The position numbers and the translations under genes are program-made. DNA of 64,000 bases from Candidatus Bathyarchaeia archaeon (GTDB lineage Archaea; Thermoproteota; Bathyarchaeia; Bathyarchaeales; Bathycorpusculaceae), in contig JBEKKK010000001.1 in NCBI GenBank assembly GCA_050010755.1, forward strand, positions 1,312,001 through 1,376,000, given 5' to 3'. A model generated the notes under the pieces. It was given only the letters and a program-made list of their open reading frames with translations. It searched no databases and was not told the origin of the DNA. Of the stretch, positions 9,866 to 45,526 are shown in pieces; positions within the stretch are counted from its first letter, which is position 1, and the number at the start of each line of letters is the position of its first letter.

Positions 9866-10795
9866 GTGCTCTTGAGCAAACTCTTAGCTGGCGAACCTAG
9901 CGAAATCGAGCCCAGGTTCGACTCCAAACGAGGATATCGATACGAAATCGTTGAAACAATCGTGGGAGACGCTTCAAAGGCTGAAGCATTCTTAGAAAGA
10001 CTCTATGAAGCGGGAATACTGGCAAGAGAGCTTCATGACGAAGTCATTTTTTGCTCCAAATGTAATTCGGCTGGAATTTCAACGCGCTATTGCTGCCCGT
10101 ACTGCAAATCATTCAATATCAAAAAAAGTTCCTTGATTGAACACATCAAATGCGGATACATGGACGTAGAGGAAGACTTTCACAAAGGTGACAAGCTTAT
10201 CTGCCAGAAATGCCACGACGAACTGAAAAAACTCGACGTTGATTACAAGCGGGCGGGAACATGGTGCACCTGTAAGGAATGCGGCAAGAGCTTCGACATC
10301 CCCTTGGTCAAATTGTTCTGCAGAGACTGCCACAACGAATTCACATTTGAGGACGCAACAATCAAAGAGGTTTACAGATACTCTCTCAAAGAGGAGGCGA
10401 GAAGAGAAGCCGCTGAGGGTTGCGTTTTGATTCCGCCGATAAGCGAGTTCCTTGCAGAAAACGGCTTTGAAGTTAGAAGCCCCGCCTTTCTGAAGGGGAA
10501 GTCAGGAGCAAATCACGCGTTCGACATAGTTGCGTCGAGAAAAGAAAACGCTCAGAGCGTAACAGTGATTGATTTGGCCACGTCGACCGACAACGTGGTG
10601 TCAGAGCAGCCTGTAATTGCACTGTTCGCAAAGATATTTGACGTATCGCCCCACGCGGCCTATCTTATCGCAATTCCCAAGCTAAATGACGATGCAAAGA
10701 AAATGGCCGAATTGTACAATATTCACGCCATTGAGGGCAAGAATCAAAAAGAAGCAATGGATAGCTTAAAGGAAAAAATCACACAAGCAAAGTGA
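9866..10795 (+). CDS. TackOD1-like multi-Zn-finger protein with C-terminal restriction-endonuclease-like fold
   Basis: CSKC, CPYC, HIKC, CQKC, CKEC, CRDC; GKSGANHAFDI. Confidence 0.7.
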   Translation: MLLSKLLAGEPSEIEPRFDSKRGYRYEIVETIVGDASKAEAFLERLYEAGILARELHDEVIFCSKCNSAGISTRYCCPYCKSFNIKKSSLIEHIKCGYMDVEEDFHKGDKLICQKCHDELKKLDVDYKRAGTWCTCKECGKSFDIPLVKLFCRDCHNEFTFEDATIKEVYRYSLKEEARREAAEGCVLIPPISEFLAENGFEVRSPAFLKGKSGANHAFDIVASRKENAQSVTVIDLATSTDNVVSEQPVIALFAKIFDVSPHAAYLIAIPKLNDDAKKMAELYNIHAIEGKNQKEAMDSLKEKITQAK

Positions 10796-36644: not shown

Positions 36645-36964
36645 GGGCTGGCGAGTTGGTGTGTGGCTTTCGAGCCTAACATCTGAAAGGCTTGAGGAAA
36701 CTCCGCCCACGCGTAGAATTGCAACGCTCGAAAGGGCGTAAGGCGAGAGCCTTGGCTACGGAGCAGAAACGAAACGTCCGCTCGGCAAATGCCGATGACA
36801 CATGCTAAGTTGTCGAGAATGCCAAGCGTGAAACGGTGAAACGGCCGTCCTGCAAGTGGAAAGGGCAAACAGACGCTGATGAAGCATCTACCCGAAGCGC
36901 GGGTAGCCCGATTAGCCGAATGCCACAAAAAACAAAAGGCGGGTTACGGCCAACACGCCAGCCC
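36645..36964 (+). ncRNA. rnpB: RNase P RNA
   Basis: GAGGAAACTCCGCCC (P4 5'), TGAAACGGC, ACAAAAGGCGGGTTA (P4 3'), P1 GGGCTGGCG/CGCCAGCCC. Confidence 0.95.
36940..36963 (+). repeat. attL core CGGGTTACGGCCAACACGCCAGCC
   Basis: Identical to 45492-45515; part of rnpB. Confidence 0.92.
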
Positions 36965-36976
36965 AAAATAAACCCC

Positions 36977-38134
36977 TTGGACGTCATAAACAACAAAAGT
37001 TCCGTCATAAACAACAAAACCACCACCACAAACAGCCAAAATTCCGTCGTGAACAACATTACTTCCCCAGCCATAGAATATTGGCTCAACGAATTAGCCA
37101 CAAAAAGCGAAACAACCAAGGAACTCTACCTGAAAAACTTCAAGAAATTTCTAGAATTTACAAACAAAACAGCCGACGAACTACTAGAACAACGCCAAGA
37201 AAACCAAACCAGCACAAACCCAAAAATCCAACGACTAATCGAGAGTCAACTCATCAAGTTCATAGCCACCAAAAGGAACGAAGGATTGTCACCAGCAACA
37301 CTTCAAACATACTTCGCCTCAGTCCGCTCATTCTTTGAAATCCATTACTACCCGCTACGAATGAGGCGCGGAGACTACCCAAGTGGCGAAAGTTTAGGAG
37401 TCAAAGCAGCAAACAAAGAGAACATACTCAAAGCGATAGAAAACAAAGCTAACCGCAACAAAACCACCATAAAAGCCGCCATCCTATTCCTAAAAGACTC
37501 AGGCCTAAGAATCAGTGACGCACGACTATTCAACTATGGCGATGTGAAAGAACAACTAGAACGCGGAGACGAATTCATTGAACTAGCACGAATAACACAA
37601 AAACAAAAAACCATAGCGAAGCCATTCATAGGCCCCGAAGCAATCCACGCACTCAAAACCTACCTACAAGAAAGAGAGCACGGTTCTAGACGAGTCCCAC
37701 CCGAAAAACTAACAGACAAAAGTCCATTGTTCCGCACATGGGAATCAACCAAAATCCAACGAATCCCTCGCAACTCCTTCTCTTCACTCGTACGCCAAAC
37801 ATTCCTAAGAATCAACGCACAACACACCACCGCACACAGCCTGAGAAAATACCTCCAAACAAACTTGGAAGCCGCAGGCGTCAACACAAACTGGATAGAC
37901 CAAATCCTAGGTCACAAACTCATCAACAGCCGAGACGCATACAGCAAACCAACCGACGAACAACTGCGAGAAGCGTACACAAAAGCATACAAGTTCATAC
38001 AAGTCTATCCAGAGTTAGACACACCGAAACCACAAGCAAACACAACACAACTCGAGACTAACAAACCAACAATACCAACGCTACAAGAATTCCAATTCAC
38101 CGTAACAATAGAAGGAAAAGAATACAAATCATAG
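36977..38134 (+). CDS. Tyrosine recombinase/integrase (start TTG 36977 or GTG 37049)
   Basis: GLRISD (R), HSLRK (HxxR), LGH, DAY (Y); SAM-like N-terminus. Confidence 0.93.
   Translation: MDVINNKSSVINNKTTTTNSQNSVVNNITSPAIEYWLNELATKSETTKELYLKNFKKFLEFTNKTADELLEQRQENQTSTNPKIQRLIESQLIKFIATKRNEGLSPATLQTYFASVRSFFEIHYYPLRMRRGDYPSGESLGVKAANKENILKAIENKANRNKTTIKAAILFLKDSGLRISDARLFNYGDVKEQLERGDEFIELARITQKQKTIAKPFIGPEAIHALKTYLQEREHGSRRVPPEKLTDKSPLFRTWESTKIQRIPRNSFSSLVRQTFLRINAQHTTAHSLRKYLQTNLEAAGVNTNWIDQILGHKLINSRDAYSKPTDEQLREAYTKAYKFIQVYPELDTPKPQANTTQLETNKPTIPTLQEFQFTVTIEGKEYKS
36982..37058 (+). repeat. 21-bp-period repeats CGTCATAAACAACAAAA
   Basis: Exact at 36982 and 37003; degenerate at 37024 and 37045. 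Confidence 0.8.
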
Positions 38135-38148
38135 ACTAAAAGGGAGCG

Positions 38149-38583
38149 CTAAGACAATGGCTTGATTGAGAGCGCGACGTAGAAAGGATTCAAAGGGTTA
38201 GCGGAAGTCGTGTATATGGTTGTGACATTAAATTGTATTCCACCGTAAATAGAAGACTCTGAACCTACGTTATAAGATGCATTAAGATAAACTGGAAAAT
38301 TGAAAACGTTCTGGTTCTCAGGAAAAGCTGAATCATTAACGTATGAACTTGTTTCAACAGAAATCCAATTCGACTGGCCATACTGCCAATCGAAAGCATA
38401 GACTGTTCTTACGTTCTCTCTTTTATCAGTGTAAGAAGCAGGAACTCCAGAATAGACATTTAATTCAGTGTATCCTAGATTGGATTTTGAGAAGGGATGA
38501 GTAATTATTACACCAAGCAGGAATGCCACACATGCAATAACTATCACCCAAGCTATTATTCTGTTTCTATCCATCTTCCCCAA
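38149..38583 (-). CDS. Membrane-anchored hypothetical protein
   Basis: N-terminal TM, N/S/Y-rich ectodomain. Confidence 0.7.
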   Translation of the reverse strand: MGKMDRNRIIAWVIVIACVAFLLGVIITHPFSKSNLGYTELNVYSGVPASYTDKRENVRTVYAFDWQYGQSNWISVETSSYVNDSAFPENQNVFNFPVYLNASYNVGSESSIYGGIQFNVTTIYTTSANPLNPFYVALSIKPLS

Positions 38584-38731
38584 TTCATCAAGCTATGTCC
38601 TTTAAAATAAACCTTTCACCATCATTCAACAAGTACGGGCGTGAAGATAACTTCTTTTTGGCGCGCGCTAAATCATAGCTCAGACACAATAAATCGCTAA
38701 ACATATATTCCTATAATTAGACGTTTTAACC

Positions 38732-39544
38732 ATGACTGATAACGCTGCTGAGGCAATATTAGACGATATGGAGAAGCAAGGTTTCCCACTTGAGATACGA
38801 GTAACCGAGATGTTAAAAGCCCATGGTTGGAGTGTCTACAATCAAGAACCCTACTTTGACAGAAATACAAACAAACAGAGAACAATAGACATCGAAGGCA
38901 TAAGAAGCATTGACTTACCTAAAGGAGAATGGGTATTTCAGGTACGGCTCATTATAGAATGCAAAAAATGCAGTAAACCATGGGTATTTTATGTTTCTGA
39001 TATAAGTAGAGATGAAATAAGAAACGAGCTTCCCTTTTACACCAAAATTTACTCTGACAGCTCAAACCAATTAGATTTTCCTAAAAACCAAATCCAGACC
39101 GATGACTACGTCCCTCAAATCTTGTTCAAAAAAGAGCTTGAGCAACTTATTTTTGAAAAATTAGCGCGTATTGCATATGAACCCTTTACAGATGGCAAAG
39201 GAAACAGCATTCGTAGAGCACGAACACAAGTCTGCAACGCAATCATAGACCTTAAGCGAGATCTAGCTCAAAGTATGGGAGTGGAAATTCCACATTATAT
39301 GCTGTTTAAACCTATAATCATTCTTGACGGTCAATTATACACATATCAAGAAGAGAACCTCATTAAGAAAAAGGGACTCTACTATTACGTAAGATTTTAT
39401 GATGAAACATTCATCATCGAAGTGGTGACTATAGGTTTTCTCAACGAATACCTCACAAAAATTGAGAACAATATCAATAACTTTCTGAGAACACAAGAAG
39501 CGCGCACACTACAAGCGATAGAAACAAAAAAGGCAGCCAACTAG
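38732..39544 (+). CDS. PD-(D/E)XK-like nuclease-fold protein
   Basis: GFPLE...RTIDI...LIIECK. Confidence 0.65.
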   Translation: MTDNAAEAILDDMEKQGFPLEIRVTEMLKAHGWSVYNQEPYFDRNTNKQRTIDIEGIRSIDLPKGEWVFQVRLIIECKKCSKPWVFYVSDISRDEIRNELPFYTKIYSDSSNQLDFPKNQIQTDDYVPQILFKKELEQLIFEKLARIAYEPFTDGKGNSIRRARTQVCNAIIDLKRDLAQSMGVEIPHYMLFKPIIILDGQLYTYQEENLIKKKGLYYYVRFYDETFIIEVVTIGFLNEYLTKIENNINNFLRTQEARTLQAIETKKAAN

Positions 39545-39755
39545 AAAAGAAACAAAGCAACCAGCAGACCTGCTCAACTAACTTGCGAAAATGCTCACGG
39601 CCAAAGCATAAAACAACACTATCAACGCTCTAGCGCGGCTTTTGGCTCGCACTCGCTTCGCATCGTGCTCGCATCACCCACATTACGCGCGCCTAAGGAG
39701 CTCGTAGAAACGATTAAATAGGAAACAATTTAAGGTGAAATGGAGTGATAAAACC

Positions 39756-40796
39756 ATGAGCGGAGCGGAAGAGTCTAGAAAACAGAGACCCTTTCCAAGG
39801 AATACAGTCGAAGATGCCCTAAGAATTGCGAAAACAATTCTAGACCTTAACAATGGCAAACCCATGAAACGAATTTTTATTGCAGATCACTTGAAAATAA
39901 GACCCGATAGCACCAATTTCAAGTATTTGATTAGTGCCTCTTTTAGGTACGGTCTTACGCAAGGGAATGAGAAATCTGAATTCATCAGCCTGACACCCTT
40001 AGGCGAATCGATAGTGAGAGCAAAGGATGCAGAAAAGACGGCATTTCTCCAAGAGGCTGTTCAAAAGATACCTGTATTCCACAATTTCTATGAAAGGTAT
40101 CGAGATGCTAAACTGCCTACGGATGAGTATGCAAAGAAACTTCTAAAAGACGAGTTTCAGGTTCCCTCAGAGCATTTGGATGAATGCCTAAACATATTAA
40201 TCACGAATGGAAGATTCGCAGGACTAATAAGAGAAGTAGCAGGAGCCACTCGTGTTGTTTTTGAGACGGCTACTTCAGCTACTCCTGTAGTCCCGCAAGA
40301 GTCAGAAGCCCAAGGAGAAGAAGGAGCGGGAGAGGAAAAGGAAGAGAAAGCCGAGCTACTCAAGGAGCAAATCAAGAAGCCACGGGTATTCATTTCTCAC
40401 AGCAAAAACAAGAAAATAGTCGACCAGATAAAACAGATTTTGGATTTTGGACAGTTTGAATATGTAGTTGCAGAGGAAACAGAAACTACAGCGATTCCTA
40501 TTCCTGACAAAATCTTTGGATTGATGAGAGACTGTGATTGCGCAATAATAAATGTAAGCGCAGATGAGCAAGAGAAACGAGCCGATGAAACCTATGGAAT
40601 AAATCCCAACGTTCTCGTGGAAATTGGCGCCGCTTTCCTCAAGTATAACAAGAAAGTGATTTTACTCGTGGACAAGAGAATAAACTTGCCTTCGAATTTG
40701 CAAGGGCTATACCGAAGCGAGTATGAAGGCGATGAACTCACCTTTACCACGGCAATGAAATTACAAAAAGCACTCACGGATTTTAGGAAACTGTGA
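39756..40796 (+). CDS. wHTH-like N-terminus + TIR-like nucleotide-binding domain
   Basis: RVFISHS...NPNVLVEIG...LPSNLQG. Confidence 0.8.
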   Translation: MSGAEESRKQRPFPRNTVEDALRIAKTILDLNNGKPMKRIFIADHLKIRPDSTNFKYLISASFRYGLTQGNEKSEFISLTPLGESIVRAKDAEKTAFLQEAVQKIPVFHNFYERYRDAKLPTDEYAKKLLKDEFQVPSEHLDECLNILITNGRFAGLIREVAGATRVVFETATSATPVVPQESEAQGEEGAGEEKEEKAELLKEQIKKPRVFISHSKNKKIVDQIKQILDFGQFEYVVAEETETTAIPIPDKIFGLMRDCDCAIINVSADEQEKRADETYGINPNVLVEIGAAFLKYNKKVILLVDKRINLPSNLQGLYRSEYEGDELTFTTAMKLQKALTDFRKL

Positions 40797-41354
40797 TTGA
40801 AGGTTGAAAGAATGTGGCATGAATATCCGATTCCGACAGATTTTGAGAACCAGAAAAGAATCATTAGGGCGTTGAGGGAATGGATAAAGCAACTTGAAGC
40901 TGACAACTTGATCTCTGGATTCGCGTTTAATCATTATTCCTCAAATCCTGAAGTGCCTGATGAACTTCGAGTCAGATTTCAATACTCTAATGAAAATAAC
41001 CGCGAGGGCGTAGAAAATCAATTAGAAACCGAAGTTAAAGAGATGCTACCGAATTATGTGATGCAAGAGAGGGAATGGGGCTCAGACACAACCGATAGGC
41101 ATATTCTCCAAGCCTACGAACTCGGAAGTAGATGGTCTTTTCTAGCTTGGGAACTAATCGAAAAGGGACGTTTTCCAGCGGAGTATTTCACGCGCCCAGA
41201 GTTCCAGTTCCATTTTAACCACGGAGTAATGAACTCTCTCGGTATTCCGAAAATCCCTGACGAACTAAACATTCACATAAACAACATAATGGATGCTACC
41301 AATTCGCGAACAAAAGAATCTCTAATAAGATGGTTGCAGGAACATCTTGCCTGA
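40797..41354 (+). CDS. Hypothetical protein resembling lantibiotic dehydratase C-terminal/thiopeptide-type domain
   Basis: LISGFAFNHY...ELRVRF...HGVMNSLGI; abuts TIR stop codon. Confidence 0.5.
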   Translation: MKVERMWHEYPIPTDFENQKRIIRALREWIKQLEADNLISGFAFNHYSSNPEVPDELRVRFQYSNENNREGVENQLETEVKEMLPNYVMQEREWGSDTTDRHILQAYELGSRWSFLAWELIEKGRFPAEYFTRPEFQFHFNHGVMNSLGIPKIPDELNIHINNIMDATNSRTKESLIRWLQEHLA

Positions 41355-41522
41355 ACTCGACAATCCTTGGAATCCAATCCTTCCTTTCTCCCCACGCACC
41401 ATCTCCTTTTGCTGAAAAACTAATTATGGATTACTAGCGCGCGCCACCCAACAAACGAAAAACATTAAGCATACTCTCGCCAAAGAGGAATTAACAATAA
41501 CGACATCTGGTAGGTTACCAAA

Positions 41523-42254
41523 ATGACAATTGAGAATTGTGCATATTGCAGGGGAACAGGTAAAGATCCCAACACAGGCCTTATTAGCAAATTTAGGCCC
41601 TGTCCAGTTTGTAATGGGCACGGTGAGCGTACCATTGAGGTTCCCATAGACCAACTGAAGCACTGTCCTTATTGCAGTGGAACAGGTAAAGATCCCAACA
41701 CAGGCCTTATTAGCAATTATGAGCCCTGTCCAACTTGCGGAGGTTGGGGTCGAATTGCGAGATCTACATGCGATTCTTCTAAAAAGAAGGAAGAACCAAG
41801 TCCAGATTTGGGCAAGAGCAAACTTCAATTCTCAAATAGGATATTCATCGTTCATGGAAGAGACAGATTGCCAGCACTTGAACTCAAAGTGCTTGTTGAG
41901 GACAAGTACCCGATAGAAGCTATCCTTTTAGAAGAAAAGGCTCATCAAGGCAAGACTCTTGTTGAGAAATTGGAGAAATACTCTGATGTGAATTATGCGT
42001 TCATAATCATCACTCCAGATGACGTCGGATCATTGAAAGGCGAGCCTCTCAAAGAAAGGGGGCGCCAAAATGTTATTTTTGAATGGGGAGTTTTTCTAGG
42101 CAAAATAGGAAGGAGTAACACGTGCCTTCTAATCAAAGGAGATGGGGAAATTCCTTCAGATTTGCACGGAGTCGGATTCTACAGATTCAATGAGAGCGTA
42201 AAAGAGTGTTTTCTAGACATAGATAATGAACTCAAAGGAGCCAAAATAGTCTAG
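41523..42254 (+). CDS. DnaJ-type CxxCxGxG Zn finger + TIR-like (CAP12/Pycsar-type) domain
   Basis: 4x CxxCxGxG; IFIVHGRD, TPDD, RQNVIFEWG, IPSDLHG. Confidence 0.88.
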   Translation: MTIENCAYCRGTGKDPNTGLISKFRPCPVCNGHGERTIEVPIDQLKHCPYCSGTGKDPNTGLISNYEPCPTCGGWGRIARSTCDSSKKKEEPSPDLGKSKLQFSNRIFIVHGRDRLPALELKVLVEDKYPIEAILLEEKAHQGKTLVEKLEKYSDVNYAFIIITPDDVGSLKGEPLKERGRQNVIFEWGVFLGKIGRSNTCLLIKGDGEIPSDLHGVGFYRFNESVKECFLDIDNELKGAKIV

Positions 42255-42477
42255 CGCGCGCTCAAGTCACTTCGCTCCTTTCGCCGAAACTAAACCGTGC
42301 ACTATCCAAGAAATAGACGGAATCAGACTATGCAGAAAACGCAAATGAACTCAAACCTCCTCTTTCTCTAATTACCAAAACAGAGCGTCAGTTAGTCTCG
42401 TTGCCATCTGGTGGCAATCAGAAGGTTTTAAGAACTAGTTCCAAGGATGCTATAAGTGAGTTCTAGGAGACAATAGC

Positions 42478-42882
42478 ATGGAAAAAGAACTGCTCTTCGA
42501 AGCCAAAGAGAACGCCACCTCATTTAACATCAAGGAATTCAGCCCAGAAGGCGCGAAGATCGACATCACCCTTACGGGAAAAATCAACGGAAAGGTGAAA
42601 GGGACAATCATAACCACACACACTGTCCTCATGAAGCCTGACGGCACATCGAAAATCGATCACAGATCAGTCATCTTCAGCAACGGCGAGCCAATCTTCG
42701 TAATGGGAACTGGCATGGGGAAAATCGTGAACCCCGCTCCTGTGCGGGACGTTGAGGAAGACCTGACATTCCAGACACCATCTCAAAAACTGGCATATCT
42801 CAATACGACTAAGGGCTGGTCAAAGGGTCCCTTCAACCCCGAAACGGGCGAATACAACTTCAAGGTCTACGCCGTCAAGTAA
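42478..42882 (+). CDS. Hypothetical beta-rich protein
   Basis: AGGAG SD; clean 134-aa ORF. Confidence 0.7.
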   Translation: MEKELLFEAKENATSFNIKEFSPEGAKIDITLTGKINGKVKGTIITTHTVLMKPDGTSKIDHRSVIFSNGEPIFVMGTGMGKIVNPAPVRDVEEDLTFQTPSQKLAYLNTTKGWSKGPFNPETGEYNFKVYAVK

Positions 42883-43143
42883 CGCGCAACACAACTTTTC
42901 AAAAAACGCAAATAACCCTCCTTTTTCTATGACCAACAGAACCAACACACTTCATCGCGCGCGCTAATAGCATTTTAAACAAGAATCAATTTGGCTCGTG
43001 AGCCTTCGGCTCACTCGCCCGTTCCAGACGATACGCCAAAAATGCCGATACGCTCAAAAACTGCTTGCACAAGTCTAAGCGAGGCGCGCGCTAGTTACCC
43101 TAATGTTTATCCTTTTGACAGATCATTAGTAGAAGTGAATAAT

Positions 43144-43692
43144 ATGGAAAAGAAAGCTGTACTTATAACAACCTTGTGCGCTATGATTGTAGTTGTCATC
43201 TTTTTCCAGTTCATCCTGTTCAACACTTCGCTACCAAAAGACTACACGACATATTACAGCGAGTTCAACAAGACTCCCACGCTTGCATACAACTACTCCT
43301 TGTCTCCTCCAGTTTCCGTATACCAAGCGTTGTTGATAGCTCTAAATAGCCGATACTGGAACCGAGAATCCCTCGAAAATTTCAGCGTCTACATCGAGCT
43401 TGACTACTGGGCATACTTTACGAACCTTTCCCCTCCGAACGGAGTGTTGGAATTGGGTGGCGCAACTTACAGGTCGACTGGCAAACCCATAAGCGGAACG
43501 GCTATAATAAATACGGTGACACAACCGCCCGCGGATTGGTTACCTCAACAAATCGACAACATCACTTACCGATACGTCTGGACAATCAACGTCCAATATG
43601 TGATCCATCCCAATGATAAGATTCCTATTGTGCCTAGCTTGCCTTTTCAGTTTCAAGTTGACGCCGCAACCGCAGAATTAATTGAGCCATAA
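43144..43692 (+). CDS. Membrane-anchored exported protein (PepSY-like tail)
   Basis: N-terminal TM after ATG 43144; C-terminal YVWTI...VDAATAELI. Confidence 0.65.
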   Translation: MEKKAVLITTLCAMIVVVIFFQFILFNTSLPKDYTTYYSEFNKTPTLAYNYSLSPPVSVYQALLIALNSRYWNRESLENFSVYIELDYWAYFTNLSPPNGVLELGGATYRSTGKPISGTAIINTVTQPPADWLPQQIDNITYRYVWTINVQYVIHPNDKIPIVPSLPFQFQVDAATAELIEP

Positions 43693-43960
43693 ACACGTTA
43701 AGCGTGCACGAAACGAAAAATCAAGAAAACGCCCAAGTCCTCGGCGACATAAGCCTTTCCCCTTCGCTCCGCTCAGGGTGCGCCTCCTTCGCAACTTTTT
43801 ACTGATGCAAAATATCCCACAAGGTCGCGCGCGCTACAAAAAAAGGCGAAATGCCAATCGAACGCCAAAGGAACAGCAACAATAACGCCACAAACAACCC
43901 GCTATACTCTCGCTAACAGGAACGAATTAACTAACACACGCTACAACAACAGAACACACA

Positions 43961-44034
43961 ACAGAACAAACAACGACAGAACAAACAACGACAGAACAAA
44001 CAACGACAGAACAAACAACGACAGAACAAACAAC
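43961..44034 (+). repeat. Tandem repeat (ACAGAACAAACAACG) x ~5
   Basis: Four perfect 15-mers plus a 14-nt fifth copy; non-coding. Confidence 0.95.
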
Positions 44035-44233
44035 AAACAACAGTAAACAACAGAACGCTATAAACACCCGCCGTTTTAACGCTCAGTAAAGTAACGCGGA
44101 AATCCAACAGAGCAACAAGCCGCCCGCACAGCGCGCGCTACTGACAGCTCAAGCAAGCCATCAACATCAACAAACCAAGCAAAGCTAGAAGCATTAGATG
44201 CTTCGCAAACTAATTTAGGAACAACCATGCGCG

Positions 44234-45031
44234 CTATTTCTTCGAATTGTGTATTAGATAATTGACAACAAAACCAAGTGCCATGAATGTAAACCCAACA
44301 GCATCTACCAATATACCTATCGTTTGGTAAGGATATACTCGGCGCGGAATCGATAAAACATCGGCGTGACTATATTGCATCTCGAAATAGGATGCCGCAA
44401 CCAAGCCAATCGCCAAAAGAAATATCCCCAAAATCAACAATACGTTGCTTCTCGCTAGCGCCCGCGCGCTGGTTGCCTCATTAACTAAGAAGGCACACAG
44501 AAACATTGCTATTGCAGGGTAAACAAGGTAGTAGCCTAGTTGATATCCTGCGAAAAATATATTGCCCGCCTGTATGAGGGCGCTCACGCACGTCATCAGA
44601 ACGACAACTAGTAGGCTAAGAAGAACTGGTGCAAGCAGTAATGTTTTTCTTTTGAATTTGATTGAAACCAAGCCTAGGACTAACGTGAGAAGTTGAGCTA
44701 TAAACATCATTGGTATAAACACCGACGCTGAATCAAAAGTAGATTCAACGTAATTGCTCGCCCAGTAATTATAGAACCATACCGTCTGCGCTAGCGTGCG
44801 CGAGCCAGAACTATAGAAAAAGAATTGGGTGGCCCTAGTCATGTACGACGAGTAATAGTTTGACCAGTTTTGACCAGACACAAAGCCATCAGACACCTGG
44901 ACACCATACCATTGAAGATAGAAGAACGGCAAAATGAAAGAAAATAGAAAAAGGAGGCATCCCACAACTGTGAATGTCTTTCTAAGGGTACCGCCAGTCC
45001 AATGTCCAACTGTTTTCTCAAGATAACTCAA
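44234..45031 (-). CDS. Multi-pass hypothetical membrane protein
   Basis: About 6 TM segments. Confidence 0.7.
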   Translation of the reverse strand: MSYLEKTVGHWTGGTLRKTFTVVGCLLFLFSFILPFFYLQWYGVQVSDGFVSGQNWSNYYSSYMTRATQFFFYSSGSRTLAQTVWFYNYWASNYVESTFDSASVFIPMMFIAQLLTLVLGLVSIKFKRKTLLLAPVLLSLLVVVLMTCVSALIQAGNIFFAGYQLGYYLVYPAIAMFLCAFLVNEATSARALARSNVLLILGIFLLAIGLVAASYFEMQYSHADVLSIPRRVYPYQTIGILVDAVGFTFMALGFVVNYLIHNSKK

Positions 45032-45283: not shown

Positions 45284-45526
45284 TTGAATTACATGACAAA
45301 CCAAACAAACGAAACCCAAAAAAGAACATGTAAAGAAATAGAACACGGGAGACTGAGGACAGAAATAGAAATTCCCAAACTCCCAGAAAGGGCAAAAACT
45401 ATGAATGAAGAAACCAAACCCGAAACCAAGGATCAACCACAAACCAAAAACCAACAAGAAACACCAAAACCAGAATTACTTGTACTAAAGACGGGTTACG
45501 GCCAACACGCCAGCCTTTTTCGCTAA
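45284..45526 (+). CDS. Small hypothetical ORF running through attR
   Basis: A/C-rich codon style like the integrase. Confidence 0.35.
   Translation: MNYMTNQTNETQKRTCKEIEHGRLRTEIEIPKLPERAKTMNEETKPETKDQPQTKNQQETPKPELLVLKTGYGQHASLFR
45492..45515 (+). repeat. attR core (duplicated rnpB 3' end) followed by TTTTT
   Basis: Identical to 36940-36963. Confidence 0.92.

Follow-up and report, generated by a model that had tools for sequence, protein, structure and literature searches.

TIR domains with NADase activity are an immune tool common to bacteria, plants and animals; to our knowledge, no stand-alone TIR protein of an archaeon has been studied experimentally, and a literature search returned none. 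In Bacillus subtilis, SpbK is a single TIR protein whose NADase is reported to be turned on when its TIR domains are brought together by a portal protein of a phage (PMC12847820). It is an abortive-infection protein carried by an integrative element, ICEBs1, in the available text of two reports (PMC12847820, PMC11984713). A different set of TIR domains, Pfam family PF10137, forms one clade of the TIR tree. As described in the available portion of its source (10.64898/2026.04.30.722052), members of this clade turn into NADases through oligomerization, TIR-STING uses a catalytic glutamate, and the toxicity of the amoeba protein TirC is abolished in an E162A mutant. Here we describe a window of 64,000 nucleotides (nt) from Candidatus Bathyarchaeia archaeon (GenBank assembly GCA_050010755.1, contig JBEKKK010000001.1, forward-strand positions 1,312,001 to 1,376,000; coordinates below count from the first letter of the window), in which an 8.55-kilobase (kb) element, integrated into the 3' end of the gene for the RNA of ribonuclease P (RNase P) and bounded by 32-nt repeats, carries two TIR genes, named A and C, along with genes B and D. 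An initial annotation had described the two TIR genes and a partner gene as one candidate antiviral system of archaea. The observation itself is sound; the interpretation as a system over-reaches, and genes A and C appear instead to be two TIR candidates of a known kind, each a single gene and independent of the other.

Both TIR genes lie on the forward strand. Gene A (39756..40796) was found as an open reading frame (ORF) of 353 amino acids (39735-40796) and is taken here from the start called in the protein database (P0001, 39756), which gives a protein of 346 residues. It consists of a DUF7226/AAA_assoc_C-like N-terminal region, an acidic linker and a PF10137 TIR domain (CAP12-PCTIR_TIR; residues 217-331 of the 353-residue ORF, E-value 7.2e-17, 61.9 bits against a cut-off of 24.7) that contains the motif NPNVLVEIG. 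Gene C (41523..42254) encodes 243 amino acids, in which two zinc-finger units of the form CXXCXGXG...CPXCXGXG are followed by a second PF10137 domain (E-value 3.5e-30, 104.9 bits against the same cut-off) with the motif RQNVIFEWG. The whole genome of 2,186,690 bases contains exactly two PF10137 matches, which are genes A and C; coordinates, motifs and genome search thus confirm the presence of the two TIR proteins that the initial annotation had recognized by NVLVEIG and RQNVIFEWG and named winged helix-turn-helix (wHTH)-TIR and zinc finger-TIR.

The glutamate of the shared motif, which can be written N-V-x-x-E-x-G, is kept in both proteins, as had been claimed. E289 of gene A (numbered on the 346-residue protein) is invariant in 45 sequences of the gene A family, together with N285, V286 and G291, and E187 of gene C is invariant in 33 proteins that share its TIR domain, as are F108, G112, E148, D167, R181, N183, V184, G189, D213 and G216. 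The segment RQNVIFEWGVFLG of gene C was aligned to RDNVVFEFGLFLG of the solved TIR-STING Cap12 chain 7un8 (E-value 1.8e-9); the catalytic role of the glutamate is taken from the available text of 10.64898/2026.04.30.722052 and not from the residue numbering of 7un8. A BLASTP comparison of genes A and C with each other aligned a stretch of only 39 residues, 33% identical, and this stretch is the motif.

In the N-terminal half of gene A, DUF7226 (PF23871) is matched above its cut-off (E-value 4e-7, 30.5 bits against 27) and AAA_assoc_C (PF09821) slightly below (26.9 bits against 27.6). The wHTH label draws on these two families and a sequence pattern, and the domain is probably a winged-helix region of the DUF7226 type. 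A literature search on DUF7226 returned no paper. Gene A has no sequence match in the Protein Data Bank (PDB), and a profile of its family gave chance-level PDB rows only.

Gene A is a member of a widespread, unstudied family of bacteria and archaea. A search at E <= 0.001 gave 2024 matches, and among the 120 matches listed most span nearly the whole query. Relatives occur in at least 275 of 185,579 species genomes, distributed over many bacterial phyla as well as several archaeal lineages, and the archaeal specificity suggested by the initial annotation falls with this distribution. Within the host class the family is patchy, with matches in 20 of 401 genomes. One genus has matches in 15 of its 40 genomes, and the loci listed there share the TIR half only, except for one full-length match (G382). 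The N-terminal domain is joined to a different TIR subtype at two loci (L021, L022), and at L051 a TIR domain of the gene A type occurs without it. Databases label the proteins of genes A and C merely as 'nucleotide-binding protein', and the gene A family is not a type of its own in the defense catalogues queried; Table S3 and the predicted-system lists of a Thoeris survey, as well as the PADLOC candidate tables, may already hold such families.

The TIR domain of gene C is matched by PDLC05004, a PADLOC model of the defense candidate type PDC-S35, with an E-value of 2.2e-48 (residues 88-242 against model positions 103-257 of 265), so that the search of PADLOC proposed by the initial annotation returned a defense candidate. 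The first ~100 positions of the PDC-S35 models are unmatched in gene C, and the double CXXCXGXG module stands there instead (DnaJ_CXXCXGXG, PF00684, E-value 3.6e-9, 37.2 bits against a cut-off of 32.7). Residues 2-81 of the protein align with the solved DnaJ zinc-finger domain 1exk (E-value 2.2e-4). In our reading, gene C combines the TIR domain of PDC-S35 with a double zinc-finger module, itself rare, where the N-terminal domain normally stands; it would be a PDC-S35 protein that has acquired a zinc-finger sensor. The two finger units came from a local tandem duplication with a period of 126 nt and 79% identity (41512..41737, forward strand, repeat family D2), and one relative, P0167, has a single unit.

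Most relatives of the gene C TIR domain (60-81% identity) are proteins of ~275 amino acids with other N-terminal domains, among them P0225, in which a PDC-S35 model is matched over nearly the full length. Full-length zinc-finger-TIR proteins are few (P0168, P0169, P0171, P0231, the single-unit P0167, and L146). P0168, at locus L128, is the sole other such protein among the 185,579 species genomes, and a search of the 401 class genomes with the zinc-finger part of gene C added one more, L146; what this search mostly returned were proteins of ~380 amino acids, taken as ordinary DnaJ by size alone. The double module is fused to a second TIR subtype in P0169, P0231 and L146. In the metagenome protein P0234 it is followed by a non-TIR C-terminus with the motif RNNAAH, which we take to be the Rx4-6H pattern of HEPN domains; comparison of P0234 with a HEPN_Swt1 protein by BLASTP gave no significant match, and a word-index search with its zinc-finger region returned two proteins only. 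Its database lists P0234 under PF27235. The L146 gene (958-1722, reverse strand, in a genome of the same order) is flanked by two integrase fragments and adjoins a 296-amino acid protein with the motif IRNSIVH. Elsewhere in the genome that contains the window, a 94-amino acid ORF (G000:C2:63390-63596) weakly matches the zinc-finger module (E-value 6e-6). The exchange of domains in the families of genes A and C follows the sensor/effector pattern typical of single-protein immune sensors.

Neither gene was found with a constant companion. At the 80 gene A-family loci that were kept out of the 275 species-genome relatives, tblastn detected no gene B, no gene D and no separate gene C-like gene, and when the 429 ORFs around the gene A homologues (three per side) were clustered, the largest neighbor family occurred at 3 of the 80 loci. 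The closest relative of gene A that was found (L142, 74% identical) is without genes B, C and D, and the 14 loci of the gene C type have no conserved partner. With no recurrent neighbors, genes A and C behave as stand-alone genes, and their Pfam domain composition agrees with the earlier description of them as stand-alone fusions in which an N-terminal domain precedes a TIR domain of the Cap12/Pycsar clade. The same searches, with those on gene B described below, speak against the claim of one system with a partner gene.

The neighbors examined for defense genes were the nearest ORFs of at least 110 amino acids on each side of gene A (143 ORFs at the 80 loci). With a threshold of E <= 1e-8, PADLOC models are matched by 16 of them, at 14 loci: LmuB, a TIR effector, a DRT-associated protein, mad2, ThsB (two), a type IIG enzyme, SIR2/pAgo-like proteins (two), AbiLii, AbiEi, AriAB, HEC-09, PsyrT, a dGTPase and PDC-M51A. 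At the other 66 loci no PADLOC match adjoins gene A. A second TIR-type gene stands directly beside the gene A homologue at 3 of the 80 loci, namely a PADLOC TIR effector match at L045 (4920-5741, the same as L004:3920-4741), a ThsB-like gene at L051 (5676-6170) and a ThsB gene at L113 (215-919, E-value 1e-118).

Gene B (40812..41354, forward strand) starts 15 nt past the stop of gene A and encodes 180 amino acids from a methionine shared by all relatives, the matches beginning at residue 6 of the ORF. It is rare, with 46 representatives at E <= 1e-3 among 1.84 billion proteins, and its invariant residues are R55, Y102, E103, G105, H137, G138 and N141. Direct matches are weak (TIGR03891, E-value 1.4e-4; PF14028, E-value 0.026, 15.1 bits, not reaching the cut-off of 24.4). 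One of the 401 class genomes encodes a 201-amino acid archaeal protein above the PF14028 cut-off, and hhalign joined the gene B profile to it with a probability of 95.5% and an E-value of 1.4e-8, the motifs L.IR, YE.GSR and HG..N..G being in register. Gene B is therefore best described, from its sequence, as a putative small Lant_dehydr_C-like protein, its 180 residues comparing with 255 positions of the model. Pfam detected a lanthipeptide or thiopeptide family nowhere else among the island proteins scanned, and scans with Pfam, PADLOC and NCBIfam gave gene B no antitoxin-like family match. A search of viral contigs with the gene B alignment found no relative, and its profile returned chance-level rows from the PDB; in the Atlas clusters that look like gene B, viruses make up half of those members for which a taxon is recorded.

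In species genomes gene B is found at 14 other loci, 13 of them named Bathyarchaeia, Bathyarchaeota or 'archaeon' and one Hadarchaeota. At 6 of the 14 (L010, L011, L014, L015, L016, L017) the gene lies near a tRNA or RNase P RNA gene, within ~300 nt at L010 and L011; this closeness suggests that gene B travels with integrated elements, and such sites are apparently a frequent setting for it. Genes of restriction or abortive-infection type lie near the homologues at L005, L013, L017 and L018 (Pfam), and at L160 an ORF judged methylase-like from its sequence adjoins a Lant_dehydr_C-like protein similar to gene B. Tblastn with the island proteins found no homologue of gene A, C or D at the 14 loci, and Pfam found no TIR domain among the 119 ORFs scanned there, gene B homologues included.

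Upstream of gene A lies gene D (38732..39544, forward strand; 270 amino acids), called PD-(D/E)XK-like in the initial annotation. The D...ExK pattern is there (IDIEG...IIECKK), and the protein has no Pfam, NCBIfam or PADLOC match; Atlas rows give a weak structural likeness, to be taken as a lead only, to Mrr_cat, NERD and PDDEXK_4 clusters (TM 0.40-0.45). A PD-(D/E)XK fold is plausible. Two arrangements were considered and rejected: a three-gene A-B-C system finds no support in the 14 gene B loci without a TIR gene and the 80 gene A loci without gene B, and gene D was dropped as a nuclease effector of the TIR proteins. Genes B and D appear to be separate cargo and not parts of a TIR system.

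The target of the element is an archaeal RNase P RNA gene (36651..36958, forward strand) that matches Rfam RF00373 over the full model (1-288) with 196.9 bits against a gathering score of 84. The left 32-nt direct repeat, attL (36932..36963, forward strand, repeat family D6), covers the last 27 nt of this gene and 5 more, and the right repeat, attR (45484..45515, forward strand), is followed by TTTTT. The repeats are 94% identical, with a 19-nt core that is exact at both sites and of which 0 are expected by chance. Directly after attL comes a tyrosine integrase (36836..38134, forward strand; PF00589, E-value 1.4e-15, ORF residues 194-374; phrog_1 integrase, E-value 5e-23), whose listed ORF reaches back into the RNase P RNA gene, so that its true start is uncertain. 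The GC content is ~0.50 outside and 0.38-0.46 within the island, and the remaining window consists of house-keeping genes (tRNA synthetases, PolB, TBP, eRF1). The arrangement is a textbook case of integration at the end of an RNA gene. By the integrase, the att repeats and the drop in GC content, genes A and C ride on a mobile element, in agreement with the island proposed earlier.

Metagenomes of peat and wetland from several studies contain the stretch in nearly unchanged form; 13 sequencing runs contain it, with no RNA run listed among them. Contigs of runs X2 and X3 span the island and show no difference from it. In run X5 the flanks are covered to a depth of ~200 with 1 difference in 1280 letters, the depth is zero over 37036-42027, and a 2752-nt contig links 36899-36963 to 42368-43990 through 1064 other letters. 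By this junction and the gap in depth, a near-identical strain lacks the block from the integrase to gene C (36964-42367), so that near-identical peat strains differ in whether they carry the cassette. In runs X5-X8, all from one study, merely 0.30-0.36 of the sampled words were present; read joints with sides of <= 31 letters were set aside, other organisms being a possible source of them. A clean empty site was not found in the synteny of genomes G402 and G403 or in the run X5 variant.

Within the genus, the upstream neighbors of the RNase P RNA gene are conserved and the downstream side is variable. In G402 and G403 homologues of the downstream flank of the window do not lie beside the RNase P RNA gene. 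Downstream of it G402 has a type II methylase and a restriction enzyme (E-values 1.7e-116 and 6.5e-56), a Csa3-like regulator, two Holliday-resolvase-like nucleases, a Cas4-like nuclease, an HD protein and a PDC-S35-type TIR protein with a TIR domain 58% identical to that of gene C. In G403 a different integrase follows the RNA gene directly, and the candidate pair PDC-M34A/B (DUF5343 and HEPN_Swt1) is found at the same place. In G404 the RNase P RNA gene is followed by ordinary, non-mobile genes (by Pfam), and on another Bathyarchaeota chromosome (L016) by an integrase fragment, with a truncated gene B 4 kb away. As an integration site, the 3' end of the RNase P RNA gene was seen in the window and at L125, L126 and L016. 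The target gene is an unusual one; a term search of a 2021 review of archaeal integrases (tyrosine recombinases) found neither 'RNase P' nor 'rnpB' in its text.

These comparisons invite a broader picture, in two parts that we grade jointly and regard as doubtful. The DnaJ-like double zinc finger would be a portable infection sensor, paired in Bathyarchaeia with a killing domain that varies (either of two TIR subtypes or a HEPN-like domain), and the 3' end of the RNase P RNA gene would be a dedicated landing site at which integrases exchange defense cassettes between strains of the genus.

The other ORFs of the island have 144 amino acids with a hydrophobic N-terminal stretch and no family match over cut-off (38149..38583, reverse strand), 134 amino acids, retained in the strain variant without the integrase-to-C block (42478..42882, forward), 233 amino acids (42991..43692, forward) and 265 amino acids with several hydrophobic stretches (44234..45031, reverse). 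Between the last two, at 43936-44037, runs a series of 15-nt direct repeats similar to ACAAACAACGACAGA. The motif CGCGCGCGCTAA, with one mismatch allowed, occurs 12 times in the window against 0.32 expected (for example at 38660, 42956, 45551, 49137 and 55134); the copies that were compared with the ORF list are intergenic and fall within and outside the island, and the motif has no constant distance to gene starts. Far from the island, at 9866-10795, lies a gene for a 309-amino acid protein with a TackOD1 output domain (E-value 3.5e-41).

The reading that we favor, and hold with somewhat better than even confidence, is that the RNase P RNA element carries two independent single-gene candidates for abortive infection, each an N-terminal sensor joined to a TIR domain of the Cap12/Pycsar clade. 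Domain composition, the conserved glutamate, the missing conserved partner, the mobile setting and the domain swapping are seen directly in the data. Genes A and C most likely act separately, as predicted NAD-destroying antiviral switches. A virus-derived cue would be bound by the N-terminal domain of either protein, possibly DNA by the winged helix of gene A and a protein by the zinc fingers of gene C; the proteins would then cluster, their TIR domains would stack head to tail, NAD+ would be hydrolyzed at the glutamate-dependent active site, and growth of the infected cell would be arrested. Several points weigh against this. The amoeba paralogs TirB and TirD gave no NAD+ processing, according to the portion of 10.64898/2026.04.30.722052 available, so that membership in PF10137 alone is no proof of NADase activity. 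Genes A and C share so little (33% over 39 residues) that they may behave differently; the winged-helix call for gene A is made from sequence; the count of 14 among 80 loci has no matched control, which leaves the enrichment near defense genes suggestive only; the majority of gene A loci have no PADLOC neighbor, and neither does the zinc-finger-TIR gene at L128. A literature search found no experimental test of either architecture. Conservation of gene A over its full length, at 35-50% identity across many phyla and with no partner, could also suit a regulatory role. Gene A would then be a DNA-binding regulator whose TIR domain binds or processes nucleotides in house-keeping or stress signaling, and gene C a zinc-finger protein-binding factor, with which the bare database label 'nucleotide-binding protein' and the 66 loci devoid of a PADLOC neighbor would agree. 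We consider such a non-defense role unlikely, given the patchy occurrence of gene A in the host class, a mobile element present or absent at the level of strains, the invariant catalytic glutamate and domain swapping of the sensor/effector kind.

The mobile setting, with an element present or absent among near-identical strains, would also fit if the TIR proteins were toxic cargo that stabilizes the element or strikes rival mobile elements instead of viruses, with gene B as a local inhibitor of gene A. The position of gene B directly behind gene A on the same strand, the 6 of 14 homologues near tRNA or RNase P RNA genes and the restriction, abortive-infection or methylase-like genes close to several of them are compatible with addiction or competition of this type. 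A dedicated inhibitor of gene A is nevertheless unlikely, since the two genes never co-occur elsewhere (0 of 14 gene B loci with a TIR gene, 0 of 80 gene A loci with gene B), and gene B has no antitoxin-like match; we hold this account, too, to be improbable. Signaling in the manner of Thoeris, in which one or both TIR proteins would make an NAD-derived signal for a separate effector of the island (gene D, gene B or another ORF), can draw on the ability of TIR proteins to make signals and on the counting of PF10137 among the Pfam families that define TIR clusters, as given in the available part of a Thoeris survey (10.64898/2025.12.03.692087). Several island ORFs have no known function, and the three loci with another TIR gene next to gene A would also fit. 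Against it, no partner is conserved at the 80 gene A loci or the 14 C-type loci, no island protein matches a ThsA or ThsB model in PADLOC, genes A and C included, Pfam and PADLOC detect in the island neither SLOG, Macro or SIR2 nor any other effector domain known from Thoeris, and the characterized members of the PF10137 clade are effectors in the available text of 10.64898/2026.04.30.722052; this leaves the signaling account distinctly unlikely. As the TIR clade is that of Cap12 and PycTIR, the proteins might finally be orphan effectors of CBASS, Pycsar or type III CRISPR signaling that respond to a cyclic nucleotide made elsewhere in the genome. Pfam detects no STING, SAVED, CARF or cNMP-binding domain in either protein, the NCBIfam equivalogs for Cap12 reach 18.6 and 51.7 bits against a cut-off of 450, no cyclase is found in the island by Pfam and PADLOC, and SMODS (PF18144) and Guanylate_cyc (PF00211) are unmatched in the genome, which is 93.5% complete. 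The absence of cyclase, STING and cNMP-binding domains reported in the initial annotation is thus extended, as regards cyclases, to the genome, and we regard the orphan-effector explanation as very improbable.

Among known systems, the Cap12 proteins of CBASS (TIR-STING and TIR-SAVED) and PycTIR of Pycsar have the same PF10137 clade and glutamate motif as genes A and C, and gene C aligns with the structures 7un8, 9lmq and 8jsj; without a nucleotide-sensor domain, with scores far under the Cap12 cut-off and with no cyclase, genes A and C are not effectors of CBASS or Pycsar. Nor are they Thoeris genes, having neither a ThsB match nor a partner. The DnaJ cysteine-rich domain and the anti-TRAP zinc fingers are named as the closest known kin of the gene C N-terminus. 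Of DnaJ itself gene C has the CXXCXGXG region only, without the J domain, and it scores 39.1 bits with the DnaJ equivalog TIGR02349 against a cut-off of 377.

The nearest described counterpart of gene C is PDC-S35, a computational candidate with a variable N-terminal domain and a PF10137 TIR domain; like gene C it is a single gene of ~250-280 amino acids with the TIR domain at the C-terminus. A literature search on PDC-S35 returned no paper. Close relatives of the gene C TIR domain adjoin restriction-modification genes in G402 and, at L129, two Cas1 genes, between which lies a TIR domain 72% identical to that of gene C. Gene A matches PDC-S35 weakly and in the TIR part only (E-value 2.7e-9). 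SpbK differs in its TIR subtype and its N-terminal domain, and the host of genes A and C is an archaeon; the PADLOC spbK model aligns with 37 residues of gene A (201-237, E-value 0.0024) and has no match in gene C, which places both proteins, by sequence comparison, outside the SpbK family. As a single TIR protein on an integrative element, SpbK nevertheless provides the working model for genes A and C, and the locus offers two compact candidates that are open to test.

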